A stretch of 64,000 nucleotides of DNA from a virus. Every line of letters begins with the position of its first letter. Position 1 is the stretch's first letter. Shown here piece after piece: positions 1-59,470 of this stretch. Where the stretch lies: the IMG/VR virus record IMGVR_UViG_3300008262_006988; one strand, written 5' to 3'. The notes below the pieces were generated by a model. The model was given only the letters and a program-made list of their open reading frames with translations, ran no database searches and had not been told where the DNA came from. The translations under genes and the position numbers were made by a program.

Positions 1-1800
1 AAGTATGCCCCCTGCAAGAGGTAGATAGTTAACCTGATTTGTATATGCCAATTGCCAATTTGCAGAATTTGTCGCAACAGTGCTGTATGTTGATTCCCAG
101 CGCGGTGATGCATTAACTGCACCCTGCCACCCTGCGCTTAAATTATAAACACTTGAATATGTACTGTCATATCTAGTAACGTCAATAGGGGTACTCCATA
201 CAGCACTATATGTCCAGACAGTTGTATTTGTATCATTCCAAGCTGCACTACCTGCTGTTACCGCGCTCTGTACCTGTAAGTTTACAGCACTTTGTTGGCT
301 AAAGAGGGTTGCTGTGGTATTCCATTTTGCGGAATTGCTATTAACGTTAGTATATGTATTTTCCCAATTACTAGTTAATGCTTTAAGATCTGTACCATTA
401 TAATCCCATGAAGCAGAGTTATTTCTTACAAAAGTTGATGTATAATCCCAGGTTCCTGAAAGTAAGTTTACTGTATTATGTGCAGCATTCCAATTAAGAT
501 AATTGTTATTGACAGTATTATAGGTATTTTGCCAGTTTCCTGTTAGAGCTCTTACACCGTAATCAGCATTCCATGTTGCACTATTCGCTAATACCGTATT
601 ATATGTGTTTTCCCAATTGCTTGTTAATACTTTAACATCAGTGCCCGTATATCCCCAGCTGCTGGAATTAGTGCGCACCGCGCTGTAAACACTGCTCCAA
701 TTAGCGCTGGTGCTATTAACAGTTGTATATGTACTTTCCCACCTACCCGTAAGCACTTTAATATCGGTTCCATTATATGACCAAAATGCTGAGTTTGTTT
801 GTACAGTACTATATGTATCCTCCCAGTTGCCTGTAAGTGATATAAGAGCTGTATCGTTGGATGCCCATTGAGCAGAGTTGTTTTGTACAGTAGTCGATAT
901 ATCAATCCATGTACTACTGTTGGTTCTTACATTAGTGTATGTATTCTGCCAGTTTCCTGTAAGCGCTCTTACCCCAAAATCTGTAGAATTATCAATAGCC
1001 CACTGTGCCGAGTTAGCATTTACAACAGTAAAGGTATTATTCCATGTTCCACTGTTATTATTAACGTTGGTATATGTATTTTCCCAGTTACCAGTAAGTG
1101 ATATAAGAGCTGTATCGTTGGATGCCCATTGAGCTGAATTAGCATTTACAATGGAAGAAGTATCGGACCATGTTCCGCTGTTACTAATGACGTTGGTATA
1201 TGTGTTCTCCCAGTTGCCTGTAAGTGATATAAGAGCTGTATCGTTGGATGCCCACTGTGCCGAGTTAGCATTTACAATAGATGAAGTATCGGACCATGCT
1301 CCGGAATTGGCATTTAATATAGCGGTACTATCATTCCATATATTATAATTGCTATTAAAAAGAAAAGAGGTATTATCCCATGTAGCAGATTCACTGCGCA
1401 TTGTAGTCTCAGTGTCTGCCCATCCGCCGCTATTTAATGCAAAGAGACTCTCCACATCATTCCAACCCGCACTATTAGCGCGCATGATATTGTATGTGTT
1501 ATCCCAATCTATAGTATTGAGGCCACCCCAGCCGGCACTAAGAGTTCTTACAGTCTGGTAAGTAGACTGAAAATTACCGCTGTTCGTGACGTACGATGTG
1601 GAGGCAGTGTTCCAGAGCCCGCTTGATCCATATATGAGCGTCTGTGTCGTATTGTATACGTTATTAAGTAGGTCTAATACAGGTATTCTTAATTCAGATT
1701 TTACACCGGTATCTTCATAGCCGACGAAATAGCTAGAAAGAATTAAATTATTCTTGTTTTTAAGCGTGAAATCTGAAAATTTCTTTGTACTAAAAGCCAT
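1..1800 (-). CDS. Trp-repeat (14-aa period) tail-fibre-like protein, 3' end runs off the window
   Basis: Absent from the ORF track because it has no stop in the window. ATG at 1800 lies 5 nt after TATAAATA. Reads MAFSTKKFSDFTLKNKNN..., then dozens of W-x-x-T-Y-x-x-V-x-x-N-S-A-x units, and reaches YLPLAGG, a motif common in phage fibres. Follows the baseplate genes. Confidence 0.75.
   Translation of the reverse strand, partial: MAFSTKKFSDFTLKNKNNLILSSYFVGYEDTGVKSELRIPVLDLLNNVYNTTQTLIYGSSGLWNTASTSYVTNSGNFQSTYQTVRTLSAGWGGLNTIDWDNTYNIMRANSAGWNDVESLFALNSGGWADTETTMRSESATWDNTSFLFNSNYNIWNDSTAILNANSGAWSDTSSIVNANSAQWASNDTALISLTGNWENTYTNVISNSGTWSDTSSIVNANSAQWASNDTALISLTGNWENTYTNVNNNSGTWNNTFTVVNANSAQWAIDNSTDFGVRALTGNWQNTYTNVRTNSSTWIDISTTVQNNSAQWASNDTALISLTGNWEDTYSTVQTNSAFWSYNGTDIKVLTGRWESTYTTVNSTSANWSSVYSAVRTNSSSWGYTGTDVKVLTSNWENTYNTVLANSATWNADYGVRALTGNWQNTYNTVNNNYLNWNAAHNTVNLLSGTWDYTSTFVRNNSASWDYNGTDLKALTSNWENTYTNVNSNSAKWNTTATLFSQQSAVNLQVQSAVTAGSAAWNDTNTTVWTYSAVWSTPIDVTRYDSTYSSVYNLSAGWQGAVNASPRWESTYSTVATNSANWQLAYTNQVNYLPLAGGIL
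821..1254. repeat. Three near-identical ~47-bp intragenic repeats (821, 1082, 1208)
   Basis: tcccagtt(g/a)cc(t/a)gtaagtgatataagagctgtatcgttggatgccca occurs three times, 261 and 126 bp apart (both in frame), encoding WASNDTALISLTGNWE. Confidence 0.9.
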
Positions 1801-1805
1801 ACTAT

Positions 1806-1813
1806 TATTTATA
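1806..1813 (-). promoter_or_regulatory. T4-type late promoter TATAAATA
   Basis: Exact TATAAATA, 5 nt before ATG 1800. It contains the TAA stop of the upstream gene. Confidence 0.8.
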
Positions 1814-4800: not shown

Positions 4801-4979
4801 AAATAAGAGCTGTATCTCGCAAGATATTCTTCTGTACCTGCAGATATTACTTCACCACCAAATTTCGCCCAATCAATAAAAGAAAGCGGCTCATCACTAT
4901 CTACGGGTGCTTGTGATGGGGTCAACGATGTTATTGAATTAGGTATTCTATCATCTATGAACCTTGTAATATCTGACAT
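1809..4979 (-). CDS. Large virion structural protein, probably baseplate-associated
   Basis: 1056 aa, downstream of the gp25-gp6 block, preceded by TAAATA-N5-ATG. No diagnostic motif recognised. Confidence 0.5.
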   Translation of the reverse strand: MSDITRFIDDRIPNSITSLTPSQAPVDSDEPLSFIDWAKFGGEVISAGTEEYLARYSSYLNNWFIQKKVSKIDSQATIQKLYISLINDIVINYSTVDEQRFLKNIDPTNQRDLAAAVPFFAKKLKDICLYYSTLRDKVQYTAIANNLNGSNYGIQKLIYNAIIETVTTDDYVKDISSLYTPISTIKNDTVIEVEDIYDTYSNYYDITPTLPSSAYSANNDIRSKYFNLNQYNVDPYLFLNIDESILRAIFQYPFYLIELGENLTIDPAVNSNQLGFLKDNDYTKLINIEQRQELNLTDQKEFITKFIGTDFYYIQTNSSGSVGVSGILFEAESEFANVLNKRYPSIAAIPSEEFLKTGKEIGLFFKPDKQGLLHFTNFKFTPVLKDGLEPNTVYYFPDPSKYGNITSNTQQDFKTPFVFREENHFNKIDFSNQYAFGDVQSDSQLHTFRAYQSREQSLNISNFGVVRYSDPQEFFKGDKKNIWANGDVYPLIPANQFPIDERIQKQLPINKTLIQYKSDIYGNDYGLYKDVEPYKVTQELNKTSTLPFQCLVLDGHLFYDSLSGYNFNYNVVDEEKGYSGVILKTSTSTLNNTPSGNGMFPLSGVDYVIASYDFQPESFCSDYIDVKYDCNVKDGQTFTLSNDAQLPDVPSDSPSYDPNDAGLYYQELVDGGVNHLNLPTYRATFAYPGEFTYTPPFTSIGDYDGSFYFVANSGAPCGAESAPTLYTETSFFLDYHIPLRETVVDTTSSYVTENKTIYDAEFKAYGDMYFRRASDSEVIPLSSALSAIFVKYNYDIQQEIYSKVINFDIYYDTILIETENYAVFDAVVPSPDGNTIYSNTGTMNAISKGVNINFEKLSTVWFDEINNNLLVCKMCILPELSASNYKIIYPKIFIHDIGTKEFSQVYPQERDETLTFEMLRGFSLIDKSIELNIVEIDKPVLTYNSDTDIYKLTYVGRDVSCMFYIFVIEFAYINGAVAIKTQTMYMPTMDVLNLNFANPVFLTEFDNYATLGTRTGSIDESDNAFVWGHIDPPVPYITFEGEYIVTEDGLNIMYTL

Positions 4980-4987
4980 ATATGTAT

Positions 4988-7900
4988 TTAATTATTATAC
5001 GTAATATTAGCGGCAGAAGTAAATAATAGCAGACCTTTTGTTAGCTCGTAACTTAAAAGTGTTTGCGCGATACCGTTATCTTTACTCCACGATTCAAATG
5101 TACTTTGATTGTAGGTTAGAGTTGTCAGCGGATCCTTCCAATTTATTACATTATTATACACTGTACCTTCATAGGTTGGTTTAAATTCGTAAAATTTATA
5201 ATATGTGCTTATATCCGTACCAGAAACTGCAGGTGGTGCCACCAAATTCCATCCCCAGAAATATGAAAATGTAGACAGCGGTAAAATACTCGAAAGAGCA
5301 TAGTTGTTTATACATTTATCATTAACTGTAGTATATTTTTCAGAAAATTTCTCGTATGCAACAATTGTTTTACCAGATGTAATAACACCGGATATTGGTG
5401 ATATTTCATTTCCGAGATTTACACCATATTTTGTATTTGAAGGTATTGTAAATTTATAATCGAAATTTTCGTTGTAAGCATTAATATCACCGTAAAGATG
5501 TTTATGTTTTATAGAGAGTATATCGATTACACGTCGTATTTGTGGTGGATAGGAGTAATTGTGTTTTTCAAAAGCTACAATAAATTCGGTGCAAAATGAC
5601 AGAAGCGTCTCAAGAGTGCAAGTTGTAATATCTGCTTTATTAGCGACGAAATTTGCTATTTTTTCATATATTGTTTTTCCGAGCTCGTAAGGCATTGAAT
5701 CAATATCGCCGACAATTGTCCCAAGAAAATCATTAAAAAATACATCTTTGTCTAATAGCATTTCTTGATGTCTTAATGACTTGTAATACTCAGCTAAGTC
5801 GTAGTTTTCGTTAATTTTTGTAATATTGTACATTCCTTTTGAGGGGAATACGTTAAAGATATTAGATTGACCGGTGAGGTACTTAACGGTTGTTGAAGGT
5901 ACCATGTATTTGTTAATCCATCTTTGACCAAACCAGTCACCGTACGCTTGAAACTGCTCTGTCTCAAACGCCGATAATGGATATGAGGAGAGCAAAGGTG
6001 GGTATTTTAAATCTAAATATGTCTCAACTTCAAACGCGGTTGTCGGTGGCTTAGTACTGTCAAGAACGTAAGCCTTGCGATCCATATTATTAATAACCCA
6101 TATATAATCACCGGTATCACAAGCTATGCCTACTATACTGCCTATGTAGGATGTTTCGTTTCCTGCAGATCCTGCAATATAGTTGGTGGTATTGCGTGTT
6201 ATGCCATCAATTTTTGTTACTGTATGTTTATTGTGTGCTACCCATGCGTTTTGACTACCGTCAACTGCTATGTTGCCGATCATTCTAAACCCTGAAAGAG
6301 GGTAACCTGAAACAAGACTACCGTCTTGATTGAATTTATATACAAGGTCATTGTGTGCAGTGAGCGTGCTGCCTGTAGTGTTATTTATTGCAGTAACCCA
6401 AATATAAAAATTTCTATCAGCACATATCTCTACAGGCTGTATTCTGTTCGGGAACGGTATGGTAGTTAATAGTGTCCCGTAAGTATTATACTTACACAAG
6501 TAATTTGATAGTGGGTGGGTGTATGCAACCCATATATTGTCTAATCTATCCGTCTCTACACTTGCTGGTAACAACGTTGATTCGCCAGTATAACCACTCA
6601 GTGCACGTATATTATATGAACTACCTTCATAATAAAAGGTATTATTAAACGGAGGTAGTGCAACGTTTGTTACATATTGTTTTATATTATCTATTTTTAT
6701 TACTATACCTGTCTCATATAAAGCACACCATACATTCTGCTTACTATCAAGCGCTATACTACTCGGTGCTGCTGCTACCGGTGAGAGAGGTGCTGCGCTT
6801 AGCGGAGCATGTAGTCTGTAGTCACGTTGATATATGAGATTGTTAACTAGCGTAGGGCATGCTGATAATCTAAATTGCTTTAACAGTGTACCATCAGCTC
6901 TATAATTAAGAATAGTGTCGTTTGTTGAATCTGCAACCCATGCTTGATAATCGTTATTCTTACCGGCGCCGGATGGTGCAAGTGAGATAGCTAATATGTT
7001 TCGATGCTCTGTAGTTTTTAAAAATATTTGAGCAGCAGTAAGAGTCATTGATACAAAGCCAGAACAACTGTCATAAACTTGCTGTTTAAGTATTTGCATC
7101 AAATAGCTGTATTGCGGTACAGCAACATAGCCTAATAATGCATCTTTTGGGTAGTTAATTGGTTCGATAAGCGTAATTGCAGCTGTTAGAGCGCAGTTTA
7201 TTGCTGTATCTGATGATACGAAGTAACCTTTGTAAAAACCGCCTACTGATTGTGGTATTTGATCATCAAAATCGTCATAAAATTTTACGTTAGTAATAGG
7301 CCTTAATCCGTTTTGTGTTACTTCTACTAACCCGGTACTAAAAGAATTGACGATAGCTGTTGATAGTTCAGGATGTACTGTCATTGACGACAGTGGTGGA
7401 TAGGTTTTTGTAGTGAAATTTTCAGTATCCTTTAATTTTATCACAAATGGCACTGGTGTGTGCTGCCAGCTTATCTCTGGCATTTCGAATTTTGTTGTGG
7501 ATAATGTACCCTCGCCGTCAATACCTGTCGTAGTTATTGATAATTTGTCTGCAGGGTTATGTCTGACTTTTACAACCGGCTGTGATAGTGATTTTATTGT
7601 TTGAAAATGAGCAGGCTGCAGCCTGATAGTGTCATAGACGTTGTTATACTGTGTAAACCTGTCGTTAAGTTGGACGTTGTTTGGTGTTGCAAAAACAAAG
7701 ATAGGGTTTTCGCGGGATGTATAGTTTTTTGCTCTTTCATCTACATAATAAAATTCTGCAGACCCTGTTACACCGGCAAATACACTGTCTTCATCGTTTT
7801 TTGAACATATTTCAAATCGATTTTGAGACTTGTTGTATCTTGTATAAATTTCAGTAAGATCAGCTGTTAAAGTATCCGTATCAGTATAAAACTCTCTACT

Positions 7901-10335: not shown

Positions 10336-10336
10336 A

Positions 10337-10879
10337 TTATGTATTAAAGAAGAAACCGGAATTATTTAATGTACCGACGAGTGTAAAGCTATTCTGAGAT
10401 ATGGTGGGTATATTTATAATAAGTGTAATTTGATATTGATTAGAATCTGCATCTGCGGGTATAAACCTAACGTCGATTGGAGATGTAGGGTCTTTTGCAC
10501 GTCCTTTTGCAGTAACTGCAACAACTTGTACCTTTTTAACCTCGACTCGCGGTTCAAACGTTGTTATACCTTCATATATAGCTTGACCTATAAGTTCTGC
10601 AGTGTCTTTAGAGCATGGTTCAAATATGTATTGTATTAAATTAATGCCAAAGAAAGGGTTAAGCAATTTTTGACCTGGTACTGTTGTAAAGAGGTTAAAC
10701 AGTGAATTTTTTATAGCACCGTAATCATAACTCAGCGTTAAATCTTTAACTTCAGATTGTTTTAATAACTCGTTGTTTTTCGTATAATTCATCTTAAGAT
10801 CAAGATAAAGATCACTATACGTAAATGTAGATATAGGTTTTTTGGGTTGCTGTATAGAGTTGAGCTTAATACTCGCCAT
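10337..10879 (-). CDS. gp25: Baseplate wedge subunit gp25
   Basis: YSDLYLDL..AIKNSLFNLFTTVPGQKLLNPFFG..IFEP..ITTFEPRV, the GPW/gp25 pattern. Confidence 0.9.
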   Translation of the reverse strand: MASIKLNSIQQPKKPISTFTYSDLYLDLKMNYTKNNELLKQSEVKDLTLSYDYGAIKNSLFNLFTTVPGQKLLNPFFGINLIQYIFEPCSKDTAELIGQAIYEGITTFEPRVEVKKVQVVAVTAKGRAKDPTSPIDVRFIPADADSNQYQITLIINIPTISQNSFTLVGTLNNSGFFFNT

Positions 10880-10884
10880 ATAAA

Positions 10885-10941
10885 TATTTATGACGTTTTT
10901 TATTTTTAAAAAATGTTTCTCCTATACCTAAATAATAAATA
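10885..10941. promoter_or_regulatory. Divergent pair of late promoters
   Basis: TAAATA at 10885-10890 (-), 5 nt before ATG 10879; TAAATA at 10936-10941 (+), 6 nt before ATG 10948. Confidence 0.7.
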
Positions 10942-10947
10942 ATTATA

Positions 10948-11544
10948 ATGAATAAAAAATTCGTAAAGCTTTATGAGAGCATTCGTACCCGTTATACTAA
11001 TGGCGGATTTCTCGCCAATGATGTTGTAAAATTTGCTGATGGCGCCTTGCGTGATCCATTTTTTAAAGAGGTCCAAGATGACTATAAGAAAGAAGTAGAA
11101 AGATATATTACATCTGGCGATACTTTACGTATTAAAAATATTAAATCTGCTATGCCAGCAGTAATGGGTGCTGGTAATACTGATAATAATGGATATAGCT
11201 TTAATGCTGAAGTATGCCGTGAAATTGCACCTGGTAGATTTTCAAATGATGCAATAACTGTACCTGTACATCTCTTAGTACGTGTGGATTCATATCCTAA
11301 TTTGCCTGAAGTACCTGCAAAACACAGATATGAAGATAAATCACATATCGATGCTAAACCTGTTAAAGATGAGGGTGAAGAGGTTCCGTTCTTCTCTCCT
11401 GGTAGAACGCGTACCGCGGATTTAGGTAATGGTAAAGATTCAAAAAGTGAAACTAATCTTTCCGGTAAAAACGTGAAGATACCAAGTATGCCTGCTAAAG
11501 GTGCAAAAGATCCTGCAAGCTATACTGCAGCTTATCTACCTTAA
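10948..11544 (+). CDS. Hypothetical late protein (candidate internal head protein)
   Basis: 198 aa with a late promoter; N-terminus MNKKFVKLYES. Confidence 0.55.
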   Translation: MNKKFVKLYESIRTRYTNGGFLANDVVKFADGALRDPFFKEVQDDYKKEVERYITSGDTLRIKNIKSAMPAVMGAGNTDNNGYSFNAEVCREIAPGRFSNDAITVPVHLLVRVDSYPNLPEVPAKHRYEDKSHIDAKPVKDEGEEVPFFSPGRTRTADLGNGKDSKSETNLSGKNVKIPSMPAKGAKDPASYTAAYLP

Positions 11545-19811: not shown

Positions 19812-22412
19812 TTAAGGTGCTATGCCTGCAGCGTTTAATGCATTCATTTTAGAATGTAATGTGCTTGTATTGCCGAACGAATTTATAGAGTTTTTAACAC
19901 TACTAACTACGACATTATTTCTTGGTGCATTACCGAGGGATGCAATTCCTTTTGATGTTTGCTCGAGATGCGAGACTTGTGCTTTGCTATTAAAAGCAGA
20001 TTCTTTCAGCATATTTAAAATCGGGCCATTAATAAGCTGATATAATTTTTCTTGTGTTTCAAACTGTTGTTTACTGTCTTGTTCTTCCTTTACAAGTAAA
20101 CCTCGATATGTGCTTGTTTGCATTTCAAACTTATCAGGAGCTTGATTTAATCTGTTAAACGGAGTTGCTGTTATTAAATTTTCTGTAGGTTGGCTTGTAG
20201 TTTGTCGAACGTTTACAGGTGCAGGGGAGGAGTATATATCCATTTTTGGAAATAAGTACTCTTCTGGTATACCTGCTTTATCTACCAATATATCACCTAC
20301 ATTTTTTTGCTTTTCTTTGAGCTCTTTAATTTTCTTTAAAGCCATATCACGTTCTTTTTGTGTATTATATAAGTTACCGGTTATAGAAGGGTCTATTAAG
20401 CCTTCAAATAAAGAACCAGAAAAAATTAAATTTTGAAAGCCCTGTGATGTTGTAAGATCTTCTCGTGTTTTTTTATCTTTACCTCGTTTATTTATTTCTT
20501 CTTGTTGTTCTTTTATTTGTGCTCTGTATGCTTCAAATTGTTCGAGCTGCTTTTTTTGTTCTTCGGGTATAACGCTCATATAGCTTGCTTGTCTACTATA
20601 CTTACCTTCTGTTGAGAAATCTGTAGTAAGTAATTTTAGTGTTGATATTTTACCATCAGGTGTTACGACTTGTTTTAAACTATCCATTACGTTAAGAAAA
20701 GTACGAATGCCTTGTGTAATGCCTGGTGCGTATCTATCAAGTATAAGTAATCCACGATGCTGCGTTCTTTCGTCGCCGCTAAACACCATTCCAAGACCAC
20801 TTAATAATTCTGAAATAGTGCTAAATGCTTTGGTGATTTTTTCGCTTATAGTAGTAAACACAGTGTTAAACATATCGCCAATATTAATTGGTTTTACTTC
20901 TTTGCCTGCATCTGGCTTGACACCCATCTTTGCTGCTGTCCAATCAAACGAACTTTTTGCAAGAGATTTAAATATTTCTGCAACTGGCTTTAATGAAGGG
21001 AAGTAATTTGTAGTAATACTGTCTAATGCTGTTGCGACATCATTGTAGTTAATGTCTGTACCTTTCTTTAATAAGTTAAATACATCACCTAATGCACCAA
21101 ACCCATCTCTAAAAAATGTAATTACAGGTTGAAATATATTAGCAATACCGCCAAATACACCGTGATATAATTGCTCAACAGTTGCTCCAATAAACGGTAT
21201 TTTCATGCTCTTATCACCGGCTTTATCATATGCAGCGCCAAGCAATCTTTCTTTTGAAGTATCGAGCAATAGTGCGAGGTATTCAGCGCCAGGTATAGCA
21301 AACGCAAGCTGTTTAAAGCCTGCTTTATAATTACCTTTATGCATTAAACTCAATGCATCCCATAGGTCAACCATTCTACCTATGAAAGGTATATTTCTAA
21401 TAATTTCTTTTACGCTTTTATTTTTTGGGCCAAGTGATTGAAAGAACGACATTATGCCACCACCCATTGAAGTCTTGGTAAATGCATCAAACATTTTCTT
21501 TACTGTTGGAAATTTAAATACACCAAAAGCAAGAGCACCAACACCTCCGAGCAAGAGCATAAGAGGTGATATTAATTTTAGTAGAGGGGACTTACCATCG
21601 GCTTTTTTTGAGTCTTTAACCTCATGCAAGAGTGCGTCAAATTTTGTAGCGTTGTCAAGTGATGTTAATAATCTTCTATCTTTTCTCGATAAATTAATCT
21701 CCGGAGGAGTTGTTTTTTCTTTGCGCTCTCTTGCAGCCGTCCGCTGATTAGCGCTTGTAATAGCTTCAAATATAGAAGTAAGCTTTTTATCGGATGAAGA
21801 CTTAAACGAGTTTAAAATATTAATTTGTTGCTTTAATATATTAGCTGCATCACCTTTAACATTTACATTACCAGATTTACCCGTTGATACCCTATCTTTT
21901 AATTGAGCTATAGATGATGTTACGTTGTCGAGTTTACCACCAAGTACAGTAACGATGTTATCTATATATGCTTTAAATGGATCTTCTTTACCTTCTTGTG
22001 ATTTTGAGAGAAATGTTTCACTTACTGTTTTAAAATTTGATGATAATGTTGTTTGTAATTTATCGATCGTTTCTTCTTGTTTTGTACCGTACTTATTAAG
22101 CTCGTTATTAATGTTTTTGCCTATTTCTTTGTTGGTAGAAACGATATTGGTGTTAATTTTATTAAGCTCATCAACGGTCTTTTCACCTGCTGATGTTACA
22201 GCTTGTTCATTTTTATGTGATGTTCGTACAAGCTCGCTAACAATCTCTTTTACATCGCGTAATGCAGTTAAATGCTTAGTAATATCGGGTAATTTGTCAC
22301 CGAGTACGTGTGCTGTTTTTTCAATGACGCGCTGCTGTGATCTGACTTCTTTTTCAATGTTAGCAACAGTGCCGAATATAGATTGAAGCTGTTCTGCATT
22401 TACCTCGTTCAT
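19812..22412 (-). CDS. Tape measure protein (gp29-like)
   Basis: 866 aa with a coiled N-terminus, hydrophobic LLLGGVGALAFG, RNIPFIG motif and an NNVVVSS tail; follows the gp26/51-like genes. Confidence 0.65.
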   Translation of the reverse strand: MNEVNAEQLQSIFGTVANIEKEVRSQQRVIEKTAHVLGDKLPDITKHLTALRDVKEIVSELVRTSHKNEQAVTSAGEKTVDELNKINTNIVSTNKEIGKNINNELNKYGTKQEETIDKLQTTLSSNFKTVSETFLSKSQEGKEDPFKAYIDNIVTVLGGKLDNVTSSIAQLKDRVSTGKSGNVNVKGDAANILKQQINILNSFKSSSDKKLTSIFEAITSANQRTAARERKEKTTPPEINLSRKDRRLLTSLDNATKFDALLHEVKDSKKADGKSPLLKLISPLMLLLGGVGALAFGVFKFPTVKKMFDAFTKTSMGGGIMSFFQSLGPKNKSVKEIIRNIPFIGRMVDLWDALSLMHKGNYKAGFKQLAFAIPGAEYLALLLDTSKERLLGAAYDKAGDKSMKIPFIGATVEQLYHGVFGGIANIFQPVITFFRDGFGALGDVFNLLKKGTDINYNDVATALDSITTNYFPSLKPVAEIFKSLAKSSFDWTAAKMGVKPDAGKEVKPINIGDMFNTVFTTISEKITKAFSTISELLSGLGMVFSGDERTQHRGLLILDRYAPGITQGIRTFLNVMDSLKQVVTPDGKISTLKLLTTDFSTEGKYSRQASYMSVIPEEQKKQLEQFEAYRAQIKEQQEEINKRGKDKKTREDLTTSQGFQNLIFSGSLFEGLIDPSITGNLYNTQKERDMALKKIKELKEKQKNVGDILVDKAGIPEEYLFPKMDIYSSPAPVNVRQTTSQPTENLITATPFNRLNQAPDKFEMQTSTYRGLLVKEEQDSKQQFETQEKLYQLINGPILNMLKESAFNSKAQVSHLEQTSKGIASLGNAPRNNVVVSSVKNSINSFGNTSTLHSKMNALNAAGIAP

Positions 22413-22435
22413 TTAATATATTTAATAAAAAAATA

Positions 22436-24146: not shown

Positions 24147-25034
24147 TTACAGCGGTGTAAAGCTGTTAATGTTAAACGCACCGCCTGTTATTTTAGGGAA
24201 ACCGTTTTTAGAAATGTTGTTAATGATGCTGATGATCGGGAAATAAGAGTTATTGGCGACTGTATAATGAGAGTATGTCCAGCGTGTTGTAATTGTCGAA
24301 AGTTTTTCCTCAGTGTAGTCGAGTGTCTGCTCACCGACGTTATAAGGTACACAATTATAAAATTGCCACACTTTACGTGGGATCATTGACATATTAGCTA
24401 ATGATCGTGAGTATTGCATCACCATCACGTTTGCTTTTACATTCTTCGGATCTCGTGTTATTGGTGTATCTCCAGGTCTCGCTGCAAGACCGTAATGTGA
24501 AGCGAGTATTACCCATGGTCTTATTACGAAATCAACGAATGATGTATTAGTCTCTCTAAACTCAAGCGCAAGTGTTGGCGGCTCGATTTGTCTCCCGTTA
24601 GCTATTATGCCTGGCGTAAAACCGCGATTGTTTGGTACGCTTATAGATCCGACATCATACTGTTCATTAGGTAGAGTAGCGCTGTAGGTAAACAGACATC
24701 CTACTATTCTTTGTGTTGCATGATTATATGTCGTGTTTTTTGCAACGTCAATATCAAACCCGTGCTTACTACCGTCTGTTCGTTCAAGCGTCTGAAGAAC
24801 TTCTGTGGTCAGATTTCGAGGTAAACTTTCAATGAGGACAATCCACTGTGTTGATAGCGGTGTTGCTGTAATCCACGAATCCATCTGCGCGAGAAAATAA
24901 TCCCGTGCACTTATAAGAGGTTGACCAGGTATATTAGTACCAATGAGTTCGGTGATTTGTGGAGCAAACGGCGGGTTAGTACCGTTAATTAACCCCACAG
25001 CGTTGTTTAGCGCGCTAGTTATTGGATCTGTCAC
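24147..25034 (-). CDS. Tail tube initiator (gp54-like, tube fold)
   Basis: LALEFRETN..IRPWV..WQFYNCVPYNVGEQTLDY..TTRWTYSHY; next to gp19; GTG start 5 nt after TAAATA. Confidence 0.6.
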   Translation of the reverse strand: MTDPITSALNNAVGLINGTNPPFAPQITELIGTNIPGQPLISARDYFLAQMDSWITATPLSTQWIVLIESLPRNLTTEVLQTLERTDGSKHGFDIDVAKNTTYNHATQRIVGCLFTYSATLPNEQYDVGSISVPNNRGFTPGIIANGRQIEPPTLALEFRETNTSFVDFVIRPWVILASHYGLAARPGDTPITRDPKNVKANVMVMQYSRSLANMSMIPRKVWQFYNCVPYNVGEQTLDYTEEKLSTITTRWTYSHYTVANNSYFPIISIINNISKNGFPKITGGAFNINSFTPL

Positions 25035-25051
25035 TTAATTATTTATTAAGT

Positions 25052-25615
25052 CTACGCTGATCTCGTGAAGTAGTGATAAGATAATGTAGTAGTAAACTCT
25101 ACTGTTTCACCTGTACCTGCTGCAATATTATAATTTAATGCACCAACAGATCTCGGTGATACACCGACTAGTGTGTACTCTGCGACTTTAAGCATTTTAT
25201 TGTCGAGCTGAACGAGAGTGATGTATGATGTTTGCCTTGGTGTGAGGTAATCACCTGTGCTGGTTGCATCATCAAACGTATATCTTGACCAGTCTTCGAA
25301 TTTTTGGCGTATTTGTGATTTTGCATCAGCATAGAAGGTAAGTGAGTAGCTATCGCTACCTGGGTATACTGCATTACCTGGTACGTTAAAGTTAAGACCC
25401 ATAAACGGTACAGGTACATTTGTTATTGCTCTTTCAGGTAATGTCGCAGTTTTGACATATACAAGATCAGAATTATCAAAAACAATTGGTTGTCCTGCAG
25501 CGTTTACTGCACTACCTGTATTGATTTGTAATACACGGAAATTAAAATCGCGAGCGAATTCTCTTTCACGTGCTACTCTGTAGAAGTCTTGGATTAGTTG
25601 ATTTACGTCTGCCAT
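25052..25615 (-). CDS. gp19: Tail tube protein gp19
   Basis: VKTATLP..VPFMG..VPG..SLTFY..IRQKFEDW..LVQLD..VEFTTTLSYHYF; directly after the sheath gene. Confidence 0.9.
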   Translation of the reverse strand: MADVNQLIQDFYRVAREREFARDFNFRVLQINTGSAVNAAGQPIVFDNSDLVYVKTATLPERAITNVPVPFMGLNFNVPGNAVYPGSDSYSLTFYADAKSQIRQKFEDWSRYTFDDATSTGDYLTPRQTSYITLVQLDNKMLKVAEYTLVGVSPRSVGALNYNIAAGTGETVEFTTTLSYHYFTRSA

Positions 25616-25642
25616 ATAATTATTTAGTTAAATGTTAGCTAT

Positions 25643-27955: not shown

Positions 27956-27961
27956 ATAAAT

Positions 27962-27967
27962 TATTTA
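27962..27967 (-). promoter_or_regulatory. Late promoter core TAAATA for the sheath gene
   Basis: 6 nt before ATG 27955. Equivalent boxes precede gp19 (25621-25626), the gp54-like gene (25040-25045), tape measure (22419-22424) and gp53 (18634-18639). Confidence 0.75.
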
Positions 27968-31188: not shown

Positions 31189-31210
31189 GATAAATAAAAA
31201 ATAGATTATA

Positions 31211-31245: not shown

Positions 31246-31253
31246 TATAAATA
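31246..31253 (+). promoter_or_regulatory. Late promoter TATAAATA
   Basis: Exact match, 5 nt before GTG 31259. Confidence 0.8.
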
Positions 31254-31258
31254 TTTCT

Positions 31259-31588
31259 GTGAATTTTAAAGACTATTTTAATACGAAGAGTGTTGAGCCG
31301 ACAAAGAAACGACATATGCATCCTATAGGTCGCGATGTTTCATCACATCCACAATCACCGGGTAAATTTGTACCTGATATGCATCGTACTATACATAAGA
31401 ATCAAAAGCTTAACACTCTCATGAAGCAGCAATCAGGTAAGGCAGTTTTGAGTAAAAAAGATATAGCACAAATTGAAGGTGAATTTCCGCCTTTGAGATT
31501 TGACCCTAATAAACCCAAAAAGATAGGTAATACAGGTGTTACACTACGGTTTGATGCTTCTATGAATAGACCTATTATTGAAAAATAA
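31259..31588 (+). CDS. Hypothetical basic late protein
   Basis: 109 aa, GTG start after a late promoter; N-terminus MNFKDYFN. Confidence 0.6.
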   Translation: MNFKDYFNTKSVEPTKKRHMHPIGRDVSSHPQSPGKFVPDMHRTIHKNQKLNTLMKQQSGKAVLSKKDIAQIEGEFPPLRFDPNKPKKIGNTGVTLRFDASMNRPIIEK

Positions 31589-33702: not shown

Positions 33703-34104
33703 TTAAGAAACAGGTGGCGCTTTTTCAACTCTTTCTTTTGCTTTAGCAAAATAAGAATTTAACTCAAAAAGTGATTTTTTTAAAGCGGTAATAATCTCAG
33801 TAATTTCTTCCTCCATTTGTTTATTTTGCTTTATTGCAGGATTTTTAAGAGCATTTTTAAACATTGTAAGTGCATTTGATGTACCGATAATTAAGTCACC
33901 AAAAATTGAGACAGTGTTTGGAAGCGGGTATGGCATAACATTACCCGCTTTTGCAGTGTTAGGGCTTTGCGACTCGTGGTCTTTATTCGCATTTACTATA
34001 TCTTTAAATTTTAACTGCTGTGTGCCAAACTCTTTTCCAGCAATACCTTGTACCCATTTATTATAGTACATTGTAGCATCTTCAAATAACAGCTTATTTT
34101 TCAC
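33703..34104 (-). CDS. Hypothetical late protein
   Basis: GTG start 5 nt after TAAATA (34110-34115). Confidence 0.6.
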   Translation of the reverse strand: MKNKLLFEDATMYYNKWVQGIAGKEFGTQQLKFKDIVNANKDHESQSPNTAKAGNVMPYPLPNTVSIFGDLIIGTSNALTMFKNALKNPAIKQNKQMEEEITEIITALKKSLFELNSYFAKAKERVEKAPPVS

Positions 34105-34109
34105 AAAAA

Positions 34110-34131
34110 TATTTAATACGTTGTATAAATA
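34110..34131. promoter_or_regulatory. Back-to-back late promoters
   Basis: TAAATA (-) at 34110-34115 and TATAAATA (+) at 34124-34131, each 5 nt from its start codon. Confidence 0.8.
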
Positions 34132-34136
34132 ATTAT

Positions 34137-34535
34137 ATGAGTTTGTTTAGCAAAAAATTTAATTATATACTCGAAGCTGATGAAGAGCCACAACCAGCGC
34201 CTGCTAGTGATCGTGAAGCGATGGCTCAACAACTTGATACAGCAAGACCAAGTGATTTTGATGTACAGCAAGCAGGAAGAGCGCAATTAGTAGATCAACA
34301 TAAAGCTAATCAAATTAAGCAACTCGATGAATGGATTGCGCAGCTCGATTCCTTTATTGAATTTTTAAACGGTACATCGCCAGAGTCTATTCAGTCAAAA
34401 TTACATGAAGCTCCTTGCGAAACTATCTTTCAAGACATTGCACGTAGTGAAAAGAAAAAAATCTCACGTCTTGCTGCTGAATTAAGCTCGTTAAGTGAAT
34501 CATTCAAAGGATACAAAATATCCGCTAACGATTAA
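34137..34535 (+). CDS. Hypothetical late protein (candidate internal head protein)
   Basis: N-terminus MSLFSKKFNYILEA; late promoter. Confidence 0.6.
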   Translation: MSLFSKKFNYILEADEEPQPAPASDREAMAQQLDTARPSDFDVQQAGRAQLVDQHKANQIKQLDEWIAQLDSFIEFLNGTSPESIQSKLHEAPCETIFQDIARSEKKKISRLAAELSSLSESFKGYKISAND

Positions 34536-35599: not shown

Positions 35600-35776
35600 T
35601 TATTTTTGTATATCTGTTACAGAAACGACACCCTTACGAATAAATGCACCTGAAGCAGGATCGTAATACTCTGCTTCTACAATTTCTTTACCCTCTCGGA
35701 TATATTTTTTAAGAATAGGGCGAGAAGGCTGTCCACTTATAGGTGATGTGATGATCTTTGGTTGAATTATATCCAT
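35600..35776 (-). CDS. 58-aa small late protein (below the ORF-track cutoff)
   Basis: MDIIQPKIITSPISGQPSRPILKKYIREGKEIVEAEYYDPASGAFIRKGVVSVTDIQK. TAAATA (35782-35787) lies 5 nt before the ATG, and the ORF fills the gap exactly. Confidence 0.8.
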   Translation of the reverse strand: MDIIQPKIITSPISGQPSRPILKKYIREGKEIVEAEYYDPASGAFIRKGVVSVTDIQK

Positions 35777-35784
35777 GTTATTAT

Positions 35785-36087
35785 TTATGCTTGTGCGGTA
35801 TTTTTAAAATATTGTGCCACACAAGCCTTATAAGCGTATTTAGGTAATTTCTCTACAACATCAACTATACGCTCTTTTACCCCGAGATTAAACTTATCAA
35901 TAGGTATTTCACGTATCTTCATTTCCGGTAAAACAAGAAATGAGTGAACGTTTTGACCTTTTTTTGTAGAGATGTAGACAAGGAGTTCTCCTAGATATAC
36001 ACCACCGGTAACCGCATATATGTATCTTTTCTTAGGGTGTACTGACGAAAGCTTACTCGTCAGTATCTTCGTCAGATAGTGAAGCAT
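35785..36087 (-). CDS. Hypothetical protein
   Basis: 100-aa ORF in an operon run; start uncertain. Confidence 0.5.
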   Translation of the reverse strand: MLHYLTKILTSKLSSVHPKKRYIYAVTGGVYLGELLVYISTKKGQNVHSFLVLPEMKIREIPIDKFNLGVKERIVDVVEKLPKYAYKACVAQYFKNTAQA

Positions 36088-36397
36088 TTTGAAAGAACTT
36101 GTTTACGAGTGTAGCGAGTGAATCAGCTTCTTGCTGTGTATGTGCACAAATGTATTGAATTGGTGTACCATCGAAAGTATAACCAAGAACAATAAAGCAG
36201 TTTAAAAATTCTTCTATAACACCAATAAGCGATTCAAGATTTTTTTTAGTAATATTTTTTTCCTGAATCTTTTCTTTCAAAAAGCTAGAAAGAGCAGATT
36301 GGATAACCTCTTTTGCTGATGCATCTTTATTCGGTGTAAACGAATTATTGTTATCAGGATCCTGAGGCTTCTTGTGATTGTTCTTGTCCTTCATCAT
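36053..36397 (-). CDS. Hypothetical protein
   Basis: 114-aa ORF with an acidic C-terminus. Confidence 0.55.
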   Translation of the reverse strand: MMKDKNNHKKPQDPDNNNSFTPNKDASAKEVIQSALSSFLKEKIQEKNITKKNLESLIGVIEEFLNCFIVLGYTFDGTPIQYICAHTQQEADSLATLVNKFFQNASLSDEDTDE

Positions 36398-36743
36398 TAT
36401 TATTTATCTCTTTTGATACAAATCGTGATCTGCCTTGATAATGAGTATTAGATACACCCTTGGTTATCAAGTAGTCAATAATCACTTCGATACTGCTTGT
36501 GTTAAGAAAAATATTTTTAGGCATACTTACACCACCGTCGTTAAATTCAAACATAACATCACCGAGACTATCTTTATTATTGTAACAAGTAATAAACACA
36601 GATCTTTCACCAGGATTAACAATTGCTGTCCATCGTCTTGGATCAGCTTTATCATACATTGTGAAAAGCTTGATTGCTATAAACCCGTTATCACGCAATC
36701 TTTTTATAAAATAACTCGGTGTTTTAAGTTTGTTCTTACTCAT
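36354..36743 (-). CDS. Hypothetical protein (N-terminus weakly HicA-like)
   Basis: MSKNKLKTPSYFIKRLRDNGF; immediately downstream of the clamp gene. Confidence 0.55.
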   Translation of the reverse strand: MSKNKLKTPSYFIKRLRDNGFIAIKLFTMYDKADPRRWTAIVNPGERSVFITCYNNKDSLGDVMFEFNDGGVSMPKNIFLNTSSIEVIIDYLITKGVSNTHYQGRSRFVSKEINNNDEGQEQSQEASGS

Positions 36744-36744: not shown

Positions 36745-37476
36745 CTAATTTGCTAATGCTGATATAATAAATTTAATCTTCGTTTTCTCAAGCTCAATGT
36801 TAAAAGTCATAACACCTAGCGACGATGCTATATTACATACTGATGTATTAAATTTCATAGAAGAAATTATTCTAAATATCTCAAAATTCAATGGTAGTGG
36901 CTTGGTGTTTGGTTTACCTGTATAATCTGATGAAATAAGTAACCCATAAGAGTCAGTGTTCGCTCTTGCATGATCTGTTAATTCACCGTGTACTTCTTTA
37001 TCAATAAAAGACAAGTAGATCTTATTTGTATCAGTAGCTATTGTACTACCCTTTACGAGGGATGATATTGATGCATATGCTAGAGTAAATTTGCTATCAA
37101 AATCGATAGTCTCAAGCTTTTTAAGATCTATCTTGGGTACAGTAATAATACCGTCATCATATAAATGATATTTAAAACGTATCGTTTTTGAGCTATAACT
37201 TATATTATTACTGCTTAATGTTAATTCGAAACCCGGTGTTTCAATACACTGAATTACTCTACATAATTTCTTTACGTCAGGTATATTAAGAGTAGCTTCA
37301 CAATCTATGCTTTCATCTTCATAGCTAATAGAAATAATACTCGTATTATCTGCTGTGCTTACCAAGCTATCGATTCTGCCCGGTGTAATCTTAAGAGTAG
37401 CACTTTCTGCTATCTTACCTATTGAAATAAGAAAATTATTAAGAAATATATCCTTATTAGGAATTGTTAATTTCAT
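36745..37476 (-). CDS. gp45: Sliding clamp gp45-like
   Basis: 243 aa alpha/beta clamp pattern (LNIPDVKKL..KTIRFKYHL..FIISAL) in the replication cluster; promoter TTGCTT-16-TATAAT-6-ATG. Confidence 0.75.
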   Translation of the reverse strand: MKLTIPNKDIFLNNFLISIGKIAESATLKITPGRIDSLVSTADNTSIISISYEDESIDCEATLNIPDVKKLCRVIQCIETPGFELTLSSNNISYSSKTIRFKYHLYDDGIITVPKIDLKKLETIDFDSKFTLAYASISSLVKGSTIATDTNKIYLSFIDKEVHGELTDHARANTDSYGLLISSDYTGKPNTKPLPLNFEIFRIISSMKFNTSVCNIASSLGVMTFNIELEKTKIKFIISALAN

Positions 37477-49035: not shown

Positions 49036-49038
49036 ATA

Positions 49039-50247: not shown

Positions 50248-50261
50248 GATACTGTTTGTAG

Positions 50262-52073: not shown

Positions 52074-53128
52074 TTTACTTTCTTCAATACGTCAATGCAA
52101 TATGCTTCTATTTCGCTCTTGTCTTCAATATCTAAAGTAGCAATAAAATCTCTCAGTGTCTGATCTAAATCAACACTATCAGAAACGGATAATGCTTCAT
52201 TCACACCTATTGTGGTGTCATGTAATGAATAGTCAATTGATAAATTAACTGGATTTAATCCCGATGCATATTTTATAACTTTATCTATATCATCTACACC
52301 ATGCTTACCATCGACTACCACCCGCACAATATTATTTGCAAATAGTTCTGAAATATCTCTCTTTGTATCACAGTACTGTTGCAGTTCTGTTACAGTTATT
52401 TTACTGTGACGCGGTGATAATGTATTTTCACAAAAATCATAAGTTAGCGCATTAATGTCAAGAATATAGTATCCTTTTTTAGAGTTATAATCACCATAAT
52501 CCATCTCATATGGATTGCCAACGTATATCACTGTGCCCTTATCATATGACCGTTCTTCACGCAAATGAAAGTGACCTGTCATTACAAGCTTTGCTTTATC
52601 AAATAAAGATTGTGTTTTGATACCATGCTCACAAAGCTTGTAGCTATTCATCTTAAAGCTCTCAACTTCAAGATGTCCGAACAATATGTCGGATTTCGGT
52701 ACATCAGATAATGGTGCACCCCACGGCAGAAAAGTAACCGTTTTACCGTAAAGTGTAAAGGTTTGTGTTGTATCTATGACGCGTATTTTGTTTTTGCCGT
52801 CAAGCAGTGATAGTGAGCTAACTGTAGAATTATCTTTATAATATGCGTCATGATTACCAACCAGCACAGTAATATTAAAATCTTTCCAGAGCGAAAATAT
52901 CTGATTAACAACGTGCATGGTATTAACAGCAACTTCATCACGATAATGATAAACATCTCCAAGTATGAATATATCATATATATTCTTCTTCTCTAGTTCA
53001 CCTTTAAGCCAGTTCGCCCATTTGAGTGCTATATCATGCCATAGTGTATTATTTTGATGAACACCGATGTGTAAATCGGCAATACAGCAAATTTTCGATG
53101 TATTGGTGCTAAGGTCAGTAATCGTCAT
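52070..53128 (-). CDS. gp47: Recombination endonuclease nuclease subunit gp47 (Mre11/SbcD-like)
   Basis: ADLHIG, LGDVY, VGNHD, FGHLE, TGHFH and YVGNPY motifs. Start taken at ATG 53128. Confidence 0.93.
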   Translation of the reverse strand: MTITDLSTNTSKICCIADLHIGVHQNNTLWHDIALKWANWLKGELEKKNIYDIFILGDVYHYRDEVAVNTMHVVNQIFSLWKDFNITVLVGNHDAYYKDNSTVSSLSLLDGKNKIRVIDTTQTFTLYGKTVTFLPWGAPLSDVPKSDILFGHLEVESFKMNSYKLCEHGIKTQSLFDKAKLVMTGHFHLREERSYDKGTVIYVGNPYEMDYGDYNSKKGYYILDINALTYDFCENTLSPRHSKITVTELQQYCDTKRDISELFANNIVRVVVDGKHGVDDIDKVIKYASGLNPVNLSIDYSLHDTTIGVNEALSVSDSVDLDQTLRDFIATLDIEDKSEIEAYCIDVLKKVK

Positions 53129-53732
53129 CGTTGGCGTATGTGGGATCAACATATACATGTGTCCCGTTAACTTCATTATTATCAATCATCAGCTCCGTAT
53201 AGACCTTATCTCTATAGTCGTTGAGAGCTTCGTGATGTTTTTTTTCTTTTTTAATTCTATTAATAAAAGCGTGGAATGCAATGGTAGTAAAATATGAAAA
53301 CGGGCTAAACCCCGAGTCAAGCTTGAAGCTTTTGTTTTTTAGTGCAGAGAACATTTTTACAATAGCATCACCTATCATATCCTCCTTGTATGAATAATTG
53401 ATGAAATTTGTTGCGTAAGAAAGACCGCTCGCTATTTTATTAATACTTTCACCGAGCTTCACAGTAATTACACCGGTACTATAATATTGACGTATTTCTT
53501 CTTCAAACTCCTTACCATTAACATAATGCTCCTTATCACGCGGCTTAATCTTCCTTACAGGCTCTTGCACAGATATCTTCTCAGCATCAACACCCCTCAA
53601 TACGACCTCTTTGTTATCACTGCGTGTTGCACTAATACTTTTTACTTTAGGTTTTTTGTTTTTTGGTGCTTTAATTTCCTGATTTTTTTTCTTCAATTTC
53701 TTTGATTGAGAATTTAATGTGCTCTTTTTCAT
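53115..53732 (-). CDS. gp55: Late transcription sigma factor gp55
   Basis: HYVNGKEF, KIASGLSYATNFINYSYKEDMIGDAI, PFSYFTTIAFHAFINRIKKEKK. Confidence 0.93.
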   Translation of the reverse strand: MKKSTLNSQSKKLKKKNQEIKAPKNKKPKVKSISATRSDNKEVVLRGVDAEKISVQEPVRKIKPRDKEHYVNGKEFEEEIRQYYSTGVITVKLGESINKIASGLSYATNFINYSYKEDMIGDAIVKMFSALKNKSFKLDSGFSPFSYFTTIAFHAFINRIKKEKKHHEALNDYRDKVYTELMIDNNEVNGTHVYVDPTYANDDDY

Positions 53733-55508: not shown

Positions 55509-55547
55509 TATTTTACTAAATAATAGTATAAATATACAAATTTGCAA

Positions 55548-55784
55548 ATGAGTATTTTTCATAGAATTTTTGAGTCTTTACTTAGTGAAGATGTGACAGC
55601 AAGTAGTGCATTTGGTCCAAATGCTACAGGAGAATTTGGTAATCAGTTCCCTAGTCAAAACAGCAAAGCTTATAACCCTAATGATAATAGACCAATAAAC
55701 CCTGTTGATGCAATTTTAGGCCGTAAAAAAAGCAAAAAGCGAGTAAAATTCAAAATCGCAAGACGTACGCCTGCTGTAATGTAG
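55548..55784 (+). CDS. Small hypothetical late protein
   Basis: MSIFHRIFESLLSED..., basic C-terminus; TATAAATA at 55527-55534. Confidence 0.6.
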   Translation: MSIFHRIFESLLSEDVTASSAFGPNATGEFGNQFPSQNSKAYNPNDNRPINPVDAILGRKKSKKRVKFKIARRTPAVM

Positions 55785-55785
55785 T

Positions 55786-56779: not shown

Positions 56780-56795
56780 TAACATAAATAACTAT

Positions 56796-57236
56796 ATGGC
56801 CTTTTTAACAAAGTATAATGAATATATTACAACATTAATAGAGCAAGATGTAGAGCAAGGTAGTCCACAGGACGCCACTACACCTGATCCTAATGCGCAA
56901 CCTAAGCCTGCTACTGATAATACTCCACAAGCTGTTGCTCCTGAGGGATATGTAAGTCTTGTTAAAATGCTCGCTAAAGCATTAGTGATGGATATACCTG
57001 CTGGTGAAATTGACGCAATTTTCACCGGTGACAATATCACAAAAGAAAATGCATTCGATATACAAAATAAACTTAAGTTTGTAATGAACGAAAATGAAGT
57101 GAAATCAGATAATATCGAGAGACTCAACAACCCCAATTTTAAAAAGTTTGTTAACTCTGTTAACGAGAATAATTTTATGCAAAAATATAATGTTATTGTT
57201 AACAGTATGAAGAAAAAGAGCCCGTACGTTCAATAA
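56796..57236 (+). CDS. Hypothetical late protein
   Basis: TAAATA (56785-56790)-N5-ATG; N-terminus MAFLTKYNEYITTLIE. Confidence 0.6.
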   Translation: MAFLTKYNEYITTLIEQDVEQGSPQDATTPDPNAQPKPATDNTPQAVAPEGYVSLVKMLAKALVMDIPAGEIDAIFTGDNITKENAFDIQNKLKFVMNENEVKSDNIERLNNPNFKKFVNSVNENNFMQKYNVIVNSMKKKSPYVQ

Positions 57237-57785: not shown

Positions 57786-57846
57786 AGCTATTTATATTTA
57801 ATTTCTAGGCTACTAAAATATTACAATTTATATTATAAATAATTGT

Positions 57847-58341
57847 GTGCAATTAACGTTTAAAGAATTTTTTAATGAAAAAAAGTGCTGGAAGGGGTAT
57901 GTTAAGAGGGGTCTTAAGAAAAAAAACGGCAAGCTTGTTAACAATTGTGTTAAGGAAGATGCTGATGCAAAGTTAATTTTACCAGTAGTAGAAAATATTT
58001 TCATTAATGGCATCGGAGTGGTTGCCGCAAAAATAGATAGCGGTAATGAGGCGTATAATGTATTACACGGGCTAAACACTAATATTGACGGCGATGTCGT
58101 TACATTTACAACTGTAAATGATAAAAAAATGTCAGCACCACTTGTTGATACGACAGTTATACATATCGGCAGTGGTGTAAAGGAAGAAAGACCTGTTGTT
58201 GCTCTTGATATTAAGCTAAAGGATAAAGTTTACCGCAACATACCTTTCAGTCTTGCAGACCGCTCTGAAAATGATGAACCGGTATTGATAGGTGAGCCGT
58301 TTATACGCGATATCGGCGCACTTATCGATGTGAGCTTATAG
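57847..58341 (+). CDS. Retropepsin-like aspartic protease (RimK-associated putative protease family) with an N-terminal CWKGY module
   Basis: AKIDSG, ERPVV, FSLADRS and VLIG motifs. TATAAATA (57834-57841)-N5-GTG. Confidence 0.8.
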   Translation: MQLTFKEFFNEKKCWKGYVKRGLKKKNGKLVNNCVKEDADAKLILPVVENIFINGIGVVAAKIDSGNEAYNVLHGLNTNIDGDVVTFTTVNDKKMSAPLVDTTVIHIGSGVKEERPVVALDIKLKDKVYRNIPFSLADRSENDEPVLIGEPFIRDIGALIDVSL

Positions 58342-58989: not shown

Positions 58990-59004
58990 AATAATTGTTG
59001 TTAC

Positions 59005-59042
59005 ATTATATTACCTGAATACGGTGTTTTCAACTATAAATA
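59005..59042. promoter_or_regulatory. Back-to-back sigma70 (folE, -) and late (+) promoters
   Basis: TTGAAA (59028-59033)-17-TATAAT (59005-59010) on the minus strand; TATAAATA at 59035-59042 on the plus strand, 5 nt before GTG 59048. Confidence 0.75.
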
Positions 59043-59047
59043 TTATT

Positions 59048-59470
59048 GTGAAATTTGATTTATTGCTTGAGACATGCTTTAATAAGCTTACCGCATTGCA
59101 GCGCGTACGGATTAAAGTCGATCCATCTACAATACCACATGCTGATGATTTAAGTGAGTGCCCGTCTTATGAAGGTTATGTACTGGAAGAGAATGATGGT
59201 ATTGTCAAGATTTTAATGGTACAACCGACAGTAGGTATCGAAACACTACCTGCATCGAGTATAGAGCCCACGGATAATGATTGTGAGTCAAATACCCTTG
59301 ATGAGCTTAAAAAATTTATTTTACAGCGATTACAGTTACAGGAATGTGACCCTTTATTTACACAAATTATAAATTGTACGAGTCTTGATGAAGTTGAGAC
59401 ATTTCTACAACAATCTGGCTGCAGCGAAGGGGATATGATGGAATTGTATAAAGATTTTATAACATTATGA
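59048..59470 (+). CDS. Hypothetical late protein
   Basis: Start reassigned to GTG 59048 (MKFDLLLET) from promoter spacing; the track start overlaps folE. Confidence 0.6.
   Translation: MKFDLLLETCFNKLTALQRVRIKVDPSTIPHADDLSECPSYEGYVLEENDGIVKILMVQPTVGIETLPASSIEPTDNDCESNTLDELKKFILQRLQLQECDPLFTQIINCTSLDEVETFLQQSGCSEGDMMELYKDFITL

Follow-up and report, generated by a model that had tools for sequence, protein, structure and literature searches.

This report concerns the 64,000-nucleotide (nt) stretch of the viral record IMGVR_UViG_3300008262_006988 (hereafter the window) and the hexamer TAAATA that stands directly in front of the start codons of a number of its genes. The record comes from an uncultured freshwater phage of the T4 superfamily, and the position of the hexamer makes it quite probable, on sequence grounds, that the RNA polymerase holoenzyme carrying the phage late sigma factor gp55 starts late transcripts on the start codon or within 1–2 nt of it, and that ribosomes initiate at the 5' AUG or GUG of the resulting leaderless messages. 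T4 late promoters and leaderless translation are each known; their genome-wide combination for abundant virion proteins did not turn up in the open-access literature searched, nor did any account of leaderless late messages from T4-like phages.

A sequence-only reading of the window had listed 17 start codons with TAAATA 5 or 6 nt ahead of them and no Shine-Dalgarno (SD) sequence. Taking d as the number of nt between TAAATA and the start codon, the hexamer was confirmed at 17/17 of these coordinates, 5 or 6 nt before ATG or GTG (nine sites on the minus and eight on the plus strand), and a search of the 20 nt upstream for GGAG, GAGG or AGGA gave 0/17. The list needs two amendments, since the ATG at 30613 is internal (codon 94) and not the 5' end of its open reading frame (ORF), and since one site at 36394 (d = 6) had been missed. 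On the 98-kb contig, ORF-opening starts number 15 at d = 5 and 8 at d = 6, while each of the remaining distances up to 30 (0 included) has 0–5, and 19 of the 107 called genes have the hexamer at d = 5/6. The shuffled controls averaged 0.59 when 40 nt were shuffled, 1.04 for the last 15 nt only and 2.09 when shuffled by column, and the highest count in 5000 shuffles was 9, so that the peak at 5–6 nt on which the sequence-only reading depended lies far above the AT-rich background. An SD-like word precedes only 3/107 genes of the contig.

The full T4 8-mer TATAAATA is present at 6/17 sites, the conserved core being TAAATA. At 1800, 4979 and 35776 the TAA of the motif doubles as the stop codon of the upstream gene, while at the other 14/17 sites the motif contains no stop; six sites lie in a head-to-head arrangement, where no upstream gene is available for coupling, and one further site (30613) lies inside a gene. 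The box is also found ahead of the portal, gp13, gp15 and protease genes, on the contig outside the window. The sites within the window are as follows:

1800..1811, minus strand: TATAAATA-N5-ATG, with TAA as the upstream stop; 658-amino-acid (aa) product, unassigned
4979..4990, minus strand: TAAATA-N5-ATG, with TAA as the upstream stop; 1056-aa product, unassigned
10879..10890, minus strand: TAAATA-N5-ATG ahead of a baseplate wedge subunit, head-to-head with 10948
10936..10948, plus strand: TAAATA-N6-ATG ahead of an isolated plus-strand gene, 198 aa
18627..18639, minus strand: TAAATA-N6-ATG ahead of a small baseplate wedge-like gene (weak PHROG match)
22412..22424, minus strand: TAAATA-N6-ATG ahead of an 866-aa gene, unassigned
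25034..25045, minus strand: TAAATA-N5-GTG ahead of a gene of the tail-tube family; 9 orthologs have GTG at d = 5
25615..25626, minus strand: TAAATA-N5-ATG ahead of the tail tube gene; box at d = 5–7 in 29/34 distinct orthologs
27955..27967, minus strand: TAAATA-N6-ATG ahead of the tail sheath gene; box at d = 5–7 in 58/79 related loci, and box, ATG and upstream ORF (uORF) in 20 others
30334..31188, plus strand: 284-aa ORF whose start lies behind a variant TAAGTA box (d = 7) and which contains a nested second start
30600..30615, plus strand: internal in-frame TATAAATA-N5-ATG at codon 94, predicted 191-aa nested product
31248..31261, plus strand: TATAAATA-N5-GTG; box in 26/26 family members
34104..34137: two boxes placed back to back within the 32 bp between head-to-head genes, on the minus strand TAAATA-N5-GTG (34104) and on the plus strand TATAAATA-N5-ATG (34137)
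35776..35787, minus strand: TAAATA-N5-ATG ahead of a 58-aa gene, with TAA as the upstream stop; box in 9/9 orthologs
36394..36406, minus strand: TAAATA-N6-ATG, the additional site; box in 10/10 orthologs
56785..56798, plus strand: TAAATA-N5-ATG ahead of a 146-aa gene, unassigned
57836..57849, plus strand: TATAAATA-N5-GTG, head-to-head; product with a PF05618 Zn_protease match
59037..59050, plus strand: TATAAATA-N5-GTG, head-to-head with folE

In T4, late transcription relies on the sigma factor gp55, the co-activator gp33 and the sliding clamp gp45 (PMC1524935, PMC2988020, PMC7892883), and the late promoter TATAAATA occupies positions -13 to -6 (PMC1524935). The sixth base after the box is therefore +1, which places the start codon on the predicted transcription start when d = 5. 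The phage encodes sheath, tube, terminase, baseplate, polymerase, helicase, primase, uvsX/Y/W and gp46/47, and the following components bear on late transcription:

53115..53732, minus strand: gp55 late sigma factor, the likely reader of the box (phrog_234 match at 53115–53753, E = 2.3e-25)
36745..37476, minus strand: candidate gp45 sliding clamp, with TATAAT-N6-ATG in front (phmmer E = 8.6e-6 to gp45 of Pelagibacter phage HTVC008M)
11546..12472, minus strand: gp44 clamp loader (clear match)

The gp55 protein is 33–43% identical to named gp55 proteins, while a PF02916 search with the gp45 candidate gave no match. The box-led genes include sheath, tube, the tube-family gene, two wedge genes, portal, gp13, gp15 and protease, and no recognisable replication gene has a box at d = 4–7: polymerase, helicases, primase, ssb, uvsX/Y/W, gp44, gp46/47 and gp55 itself are all without one.

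The record is 39% complete. Relatives are numerous in IMG/VR (at least 214 by sheath, about 600 by capsid), and one complete relative measures 230 kb. No cultured relative was found, as the best DNA polymerase identity is 31% and no sheath match extends over more than 41% of the protein. We compared 463 distinct box-led starts with 979 other starts from about 160 related loci, with TTG and CTG allowed in the search. At d = 5 the start codon is ATG in 237 cases and GTG in 44, with TTG and CTG both at 0, and among all 463 box-led starts there is a single TTG and no CTG, which agrees with the ATG/GTG-only rule for leaderless initiation reported in mycobacteria (PMC4633059). GTG falls to 4/119 at d = 6, a drop relative to d = 5 with p = 0.05 when counted by family. 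At d = 5, 71/77 families have a pyrimidine at -1, compared with 124/203 of the families that lack a box (p = 8e-8); at d = 6 the base is mixed (26 vs 23). A pyrimidine is the base expected directly before a transcription start. SD words precede 6/463 box-led starts and 113/979 other starts. Around the box itself, position -12 is A in 62% of the box-led starts, there is no strong conservation at the tabulated positions -18 to -13, and the TAA of the motif is an upstream stop at 33/463 sites.

The genes without TAAATA also carry a signal. Across the pooled clade data, TATA[AC]T in non-box genes peaks at d = 6 (32, vs 0–12 elsewhere), which is the leaderless distance for a sigma70 hexamer at -12..-7; examples in the window precede the gp45 candidate, primase, uvsX and dUTPase. 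With TAAATA at d = 5 and TATA[AC]T at d = 6, there are two promoter classes, each at its own predicted distance, and the sigma70-type boxes ahead of non-late genes thus appear to share the leaderless geometry across the clade. Boxes of the TATA[AC]T type argue against a Bacteroidota host, given what is known of Bacteroidota promoters.

The internal site at 30613 provides a natural experiment. Orthologs of ORF 30334–31188 align from residue 1, and the internal box-N5-ATG is kept in 21/22 full-length orthologs, most of them 37–50% identical to this protein. Within the box, Ile is encoded by ATA in 21/21, although only 57/203 (28%) of all Ile codons of these genes are ATA; at the next conserved Ile position, 15/17 have ATT. 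In another subclade (L025, L028, L030, L038) the two halves are adjacent separate genes, the second of which starts at this point behind its own box. The conservation, the ATA bias and the gene split together indicate that the box plus ATG is selected at the DNA level and marks a protein start, so that in-frame products of 284 and 191 aa are predicted, each start behind its own box. A Pfam search with the product gave no match.

A second natural experiment is found in the sheath gene. In 20/79 sheath relatives (loci L042–L065) some 45 nt separate the box from the sheath ATG, in most cases with a GGAG-type word, and we had considered these to be ordinary T4-like leadered genes; this was dropped on finding that, in 20/20, an ATG 7–8 nt after the box opens an 11-codon uORF. 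The uORF closes with a TAA that stops 1 nt short of the sheath start codon, or 5 nt short in a single variant. The 13 distinct uORF sequences differ by about 42% at every codon position, with in-frame stops in 0/13 and stops in the +1 frame in 11/13, so the frame, length and end point are conserved and the peptide is variable. In a quick tree, the uORF group is one clade (support of 100 in the Shimodaira–Hasegawa-like approximate likelihood ratio test, SH-aLRT) nested among box-led relatives. We infer that the leader was gained and that the 5' AUG would still load the ribosome.

Several observations weigh against leaderless initiation by gp55 or limit it. No box lies near the major capsid gene, which is last in the head operon, about 110 nt past the previous stop; its leader carries an SD-like word in 46/69 relatives, which means that the host reads SD and that not all late messages are leaderless. 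Terminase, gp6, hub and gp14 are likewise without a box. The earlier proposal that late genes as such are leaderless is thus to be narrowed: on the evidence of gp55, the geometry and the clade signatures, it holds up as a prediction for sheath, tube and the GTG-start genes, and it does not extend to capsid or to the four genes just named. A virion family could be assigned to only 5/17 box-led genes. A search for the co-activator gp33 (PF16805) gave no match, either here or in four relatives that include a complete one, although it is a small divergent protein that may be missed. The relatives are not independent of each other, and the sigma70-type peak is seen only in the pooled data, the contig alone having no clear peak. 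The uORF has a single origin and counts as one piece of evidence, for which reason a no-stop probability product of 1e-5 overstates its weight; in addition, the spacing of 7–8 in that clade requires a leader of 2–3 nt. Contigs from RNA libraries cannot show 5' ends, strand or level. Finally, a host capacity for strong leaderless translation of sheath and tube is assumed, while leaderless output in E. coli is about 10% of leadered output (PMC4633059).

The capsid leader (L001:3230-3340, minus strand, in G000 outside the window; relatives are loci L084–L163) has features of its own. A hairpin of the UGA-GG-loop-CC-UGA type occurs in 40/69 relatives compared with 3.6 in shuffles, and the word GUCGA in 35/69. 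We take the hairpin to resemble a tandem G-A kink-loop. An Rfam search of the leader gave no match, and it is a candidate cis-regulatory RNA.

To explain these observations, we propose that TAAATA is the core of a T4-type late promoter that would be recognised by the phage's own gp55, with +1 coinciding with the start codon's first base when d = 5 and lying 1–2 nt off at d = 4, 6 and 7, and that host ribosomes would take such messages at the 5' AUG or GUG without SD. Each late gene or short-operon head would then bear a promoter-plus-start cassette of about 14 bp, which would suit tight packing and frequent strand switches. Downstream cistrons would be served by translational coupling, capsid by its separate structured and often SD-bearing leader, and early genes by the same layout with host sigma70 -10 boxes. 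A broader proposal, in which we place a little less than even confidence, is that a widespread aquatic clade of T4-superfamily jumbo phages may run nearly its whole programme, early (sigma70) and late (gp55), through 5' AUG/GUG entry, with the sheath leader as a leaderless 11-codon loader ORF and nested isoforms made through an embedded promoter-plus-ATG cassette; this would imply that the hosts are an abundant aquatic lineage in which leaderless translation is as efficient as in mycobacteria.

TAAATA could instead act in the message, as an AU-rich non-SD translation enhancer (S1-binding or Kozak-like as in Bacteroidota), with transcripts starting further upstream. We consider this unlikely, even though a genome so nearly free of SD, with an AT-rich context, would suit it, and even though the complete relative encodes a bS21-like protein, a gene also present in phages with other translation habits (PMC9723584). 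The Bacteroidota Kozak-like signature, with a preference for A at -3 and a motif ahead of all genes, was sought across the clade and is not there: the -3 base of box-led starts is T in 0.50 and A in 0.39, other genes have A in 0.42, and the position equals its neighbours. Non-SD motifs precede all genes (PMC6028130), whereas this box is limited to a subset that leaves out replication and capsid. Also against an enhancer are the match of the motif to the box of gp55, which the phage encodes, the second promoter class at its own distance, and the two facing boxes that take up a head-to-head gap of 32 bp; a pyrimidine at -1 and starts restricted to ATG and GTG are expected of a transcription start site, not of an enhancer.

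Slightly less probable still is that leaderless messages arise here through a different reader of the box, either a sigma factor of the host or some phage factor other than gp55. The conservation of only the 6-base core, with the full 8-mer at about a third of the sites, and the failure to find gp33 would fit such a reader, but other T4-like phages are also known to vary at -13/-12 (PMC1524935), and gp55, gp44 and a gp45 candidate are all encoded. The avoidance of replication genes by the box and the separate placement of the host-type TAnnnT at d = 6 and of TAAATA at d = 5, as two readers would require, point in the same direction. The pattern might finally be a by-product of tight packing, in which a TAA stop and an AT-rich 8-nt gap serve termination-reinitiation on a polycistronic message. 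Formally this fits 1800, 4979, 35776 and the 33 clade sites with an upstream stop, yet it is very improbable as a general account, as it is already rejected for most sites and explains at most three of the window: the remaining 14/17 have no stop in the motif, six being head-to-head and one intragenic, and neither the composition-matched nulls nor phages of the same guanine-cytosine (GC) content have a peak. Initiation of late transcripts by gp55 at the start codon remains the reading we prefer.

Three freshwater metatranscriptome runs from two studies contain 6–8% of the words. The RNA-library contigs, several of them without a differing letter, lie inside tube (25074–25565), inside sheath and at 30687–31190, and DNA may be present in these libraries. 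That the contigs leave 30334–30612 and the promoters uncovered is given no weight. As a clue to the host, capsid matches in metagenome-assembled genomes (Bacteriovoracaceae, Terrimicrobiaceae and an archaeon) were considered and set aside, since they look like co-binned phage contigs; in one example a contig of 38% GC sits in a bin of 59% GC. PhoH homologs yielded no taxonomy, a WhiB gene was sought and not found, and a search for tRNA genes in the window found none.

Some further observations concern the gene content. In the complete 230-kb relative, a divergent bS21-like gene stands just before gp15 behind TAAATA-N4-ATG (G003:C1:39318-39521; L203:3318-3521), and at that position this genome has a helicase-like gene instead. 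TAAATA also lies 9–10 nt ahead of the starts at 19796, 42635, 57785 and 12999, which would give a leader of 4–5 nt if it is a promoter there; orthologs of 12999 mostly have d = 4–7. Among the small box-led proteins (10948, 30613, 31259, 34137, 56796, 57847 and 59048), many open with a short stretch of the F..L/F/Y.E type, which recalls the capsid targeting sequences (CTS) of T4. The CTS of T4 have been described (PMC9026906), and these small proteins may be head-internal proteins. Genes for preQ0 synthesis (folE, queD, queE, queC), an amidotransferase-like gene and phoH are found at 41894–44779 and 58336–62998, and suggest 7-deazaguanine DNA modification. Beyond the end of the window there is a run of glycosyltransferase (GT10, GT11, GT2, GT7C), epimerase and methyltransferase genes (G000, L002).

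What gives these results their value is less this genome alone than the rule that holds across the clade, together with the sheath uORF and the nested start as natural experiments. Leaderless initiation is usually viewed as weak in Proteobacteria, and if sheath and tube are indeed leaderless, the host would probably be an abundant aquatic one that translates leaderless messages strongly, and the layout would become a sequence handle for host prediction. In a large clade without cultured members, the box would also show which start codons are the true ones, among them GTG and internal starts overlooked by gene callers.

Compared with T4 late promoters, the present boxes have the same core motif, a gp55 homolog, use on either strand, and a position ahead of sheath, tube, baseplate, portal, neck and protease genes. 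T4 late promoters have no conserved -35 region; the positions tabulated here, -18 to -13, are not strongly conserved. In T4, however, the box lies 9–46 nt (mostly 21–28) before the start and is then followed by SD (29/53 genes), whereas here it lies 5–6 nt before the start, SD is nearly absent, TAAATA alone is conserved and gp33 was not detected. T4 genes 18, 19 and 22 have the box and then SD, which bears out the contrast with SD-led T4 late messages drawn in the sequence-only reading. In the regions examined of T4, Syn9 and P-SSM5 there are 0 boxes at d = 4–7, most lying about 20–30 nt upstream, and T4 and P-SSM5 have the same GC content as this phage (35–36%). Melnitz has a single d = 5 site, and Rhizobium phage RL38J1, which has no TAAATA near its starts, is uninformative. 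The nested T4 genes 17 and 21 (PMC9026906) likewise give long and short in-frame products from one ORF, gene 17 by internal transcription; at 30613, unlike in these, a promoter box stands directly before the internal ATG; its codons are conserved, and it coincides with the point at which a subclade has two separate genes.

The closest likeness outside phages is with Mycobacterium, Deinococcus-Thermus and other bacteria of GeneMarkS-2 group C, in which a -10-type box lies 5–8 nt before an ATG or GTG start (PMC4633059, PMC6028130), short ORFs occur at transcript 5' ends, and operon-first genes are leaderless while inner genes are led otherwise. Unlike in these bacteria, the box here is a phage late promoter, the targets include genes for abundant virion proteins, no WhiB was found, and the system is known from sequence. 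The lambda cI message from pRM (PMC10491246) is also a phage message beginning at its AUG, but it encodes a single weakly expressed regulator under host sigma70 and not a structural-gene programme. HTVC008M (Kyanoviridae; L175), which is only distantly related to this phage, has SD-led sheath, tube and capsid genes, and SD in 42% of its genes vs 3% here. It does share the geometry, with about ten TAAATA-N5-ATG genes in 100 kb, roughly nine of them in the first 50 kb, and since it is cultured, it makes this geometry directly testable.

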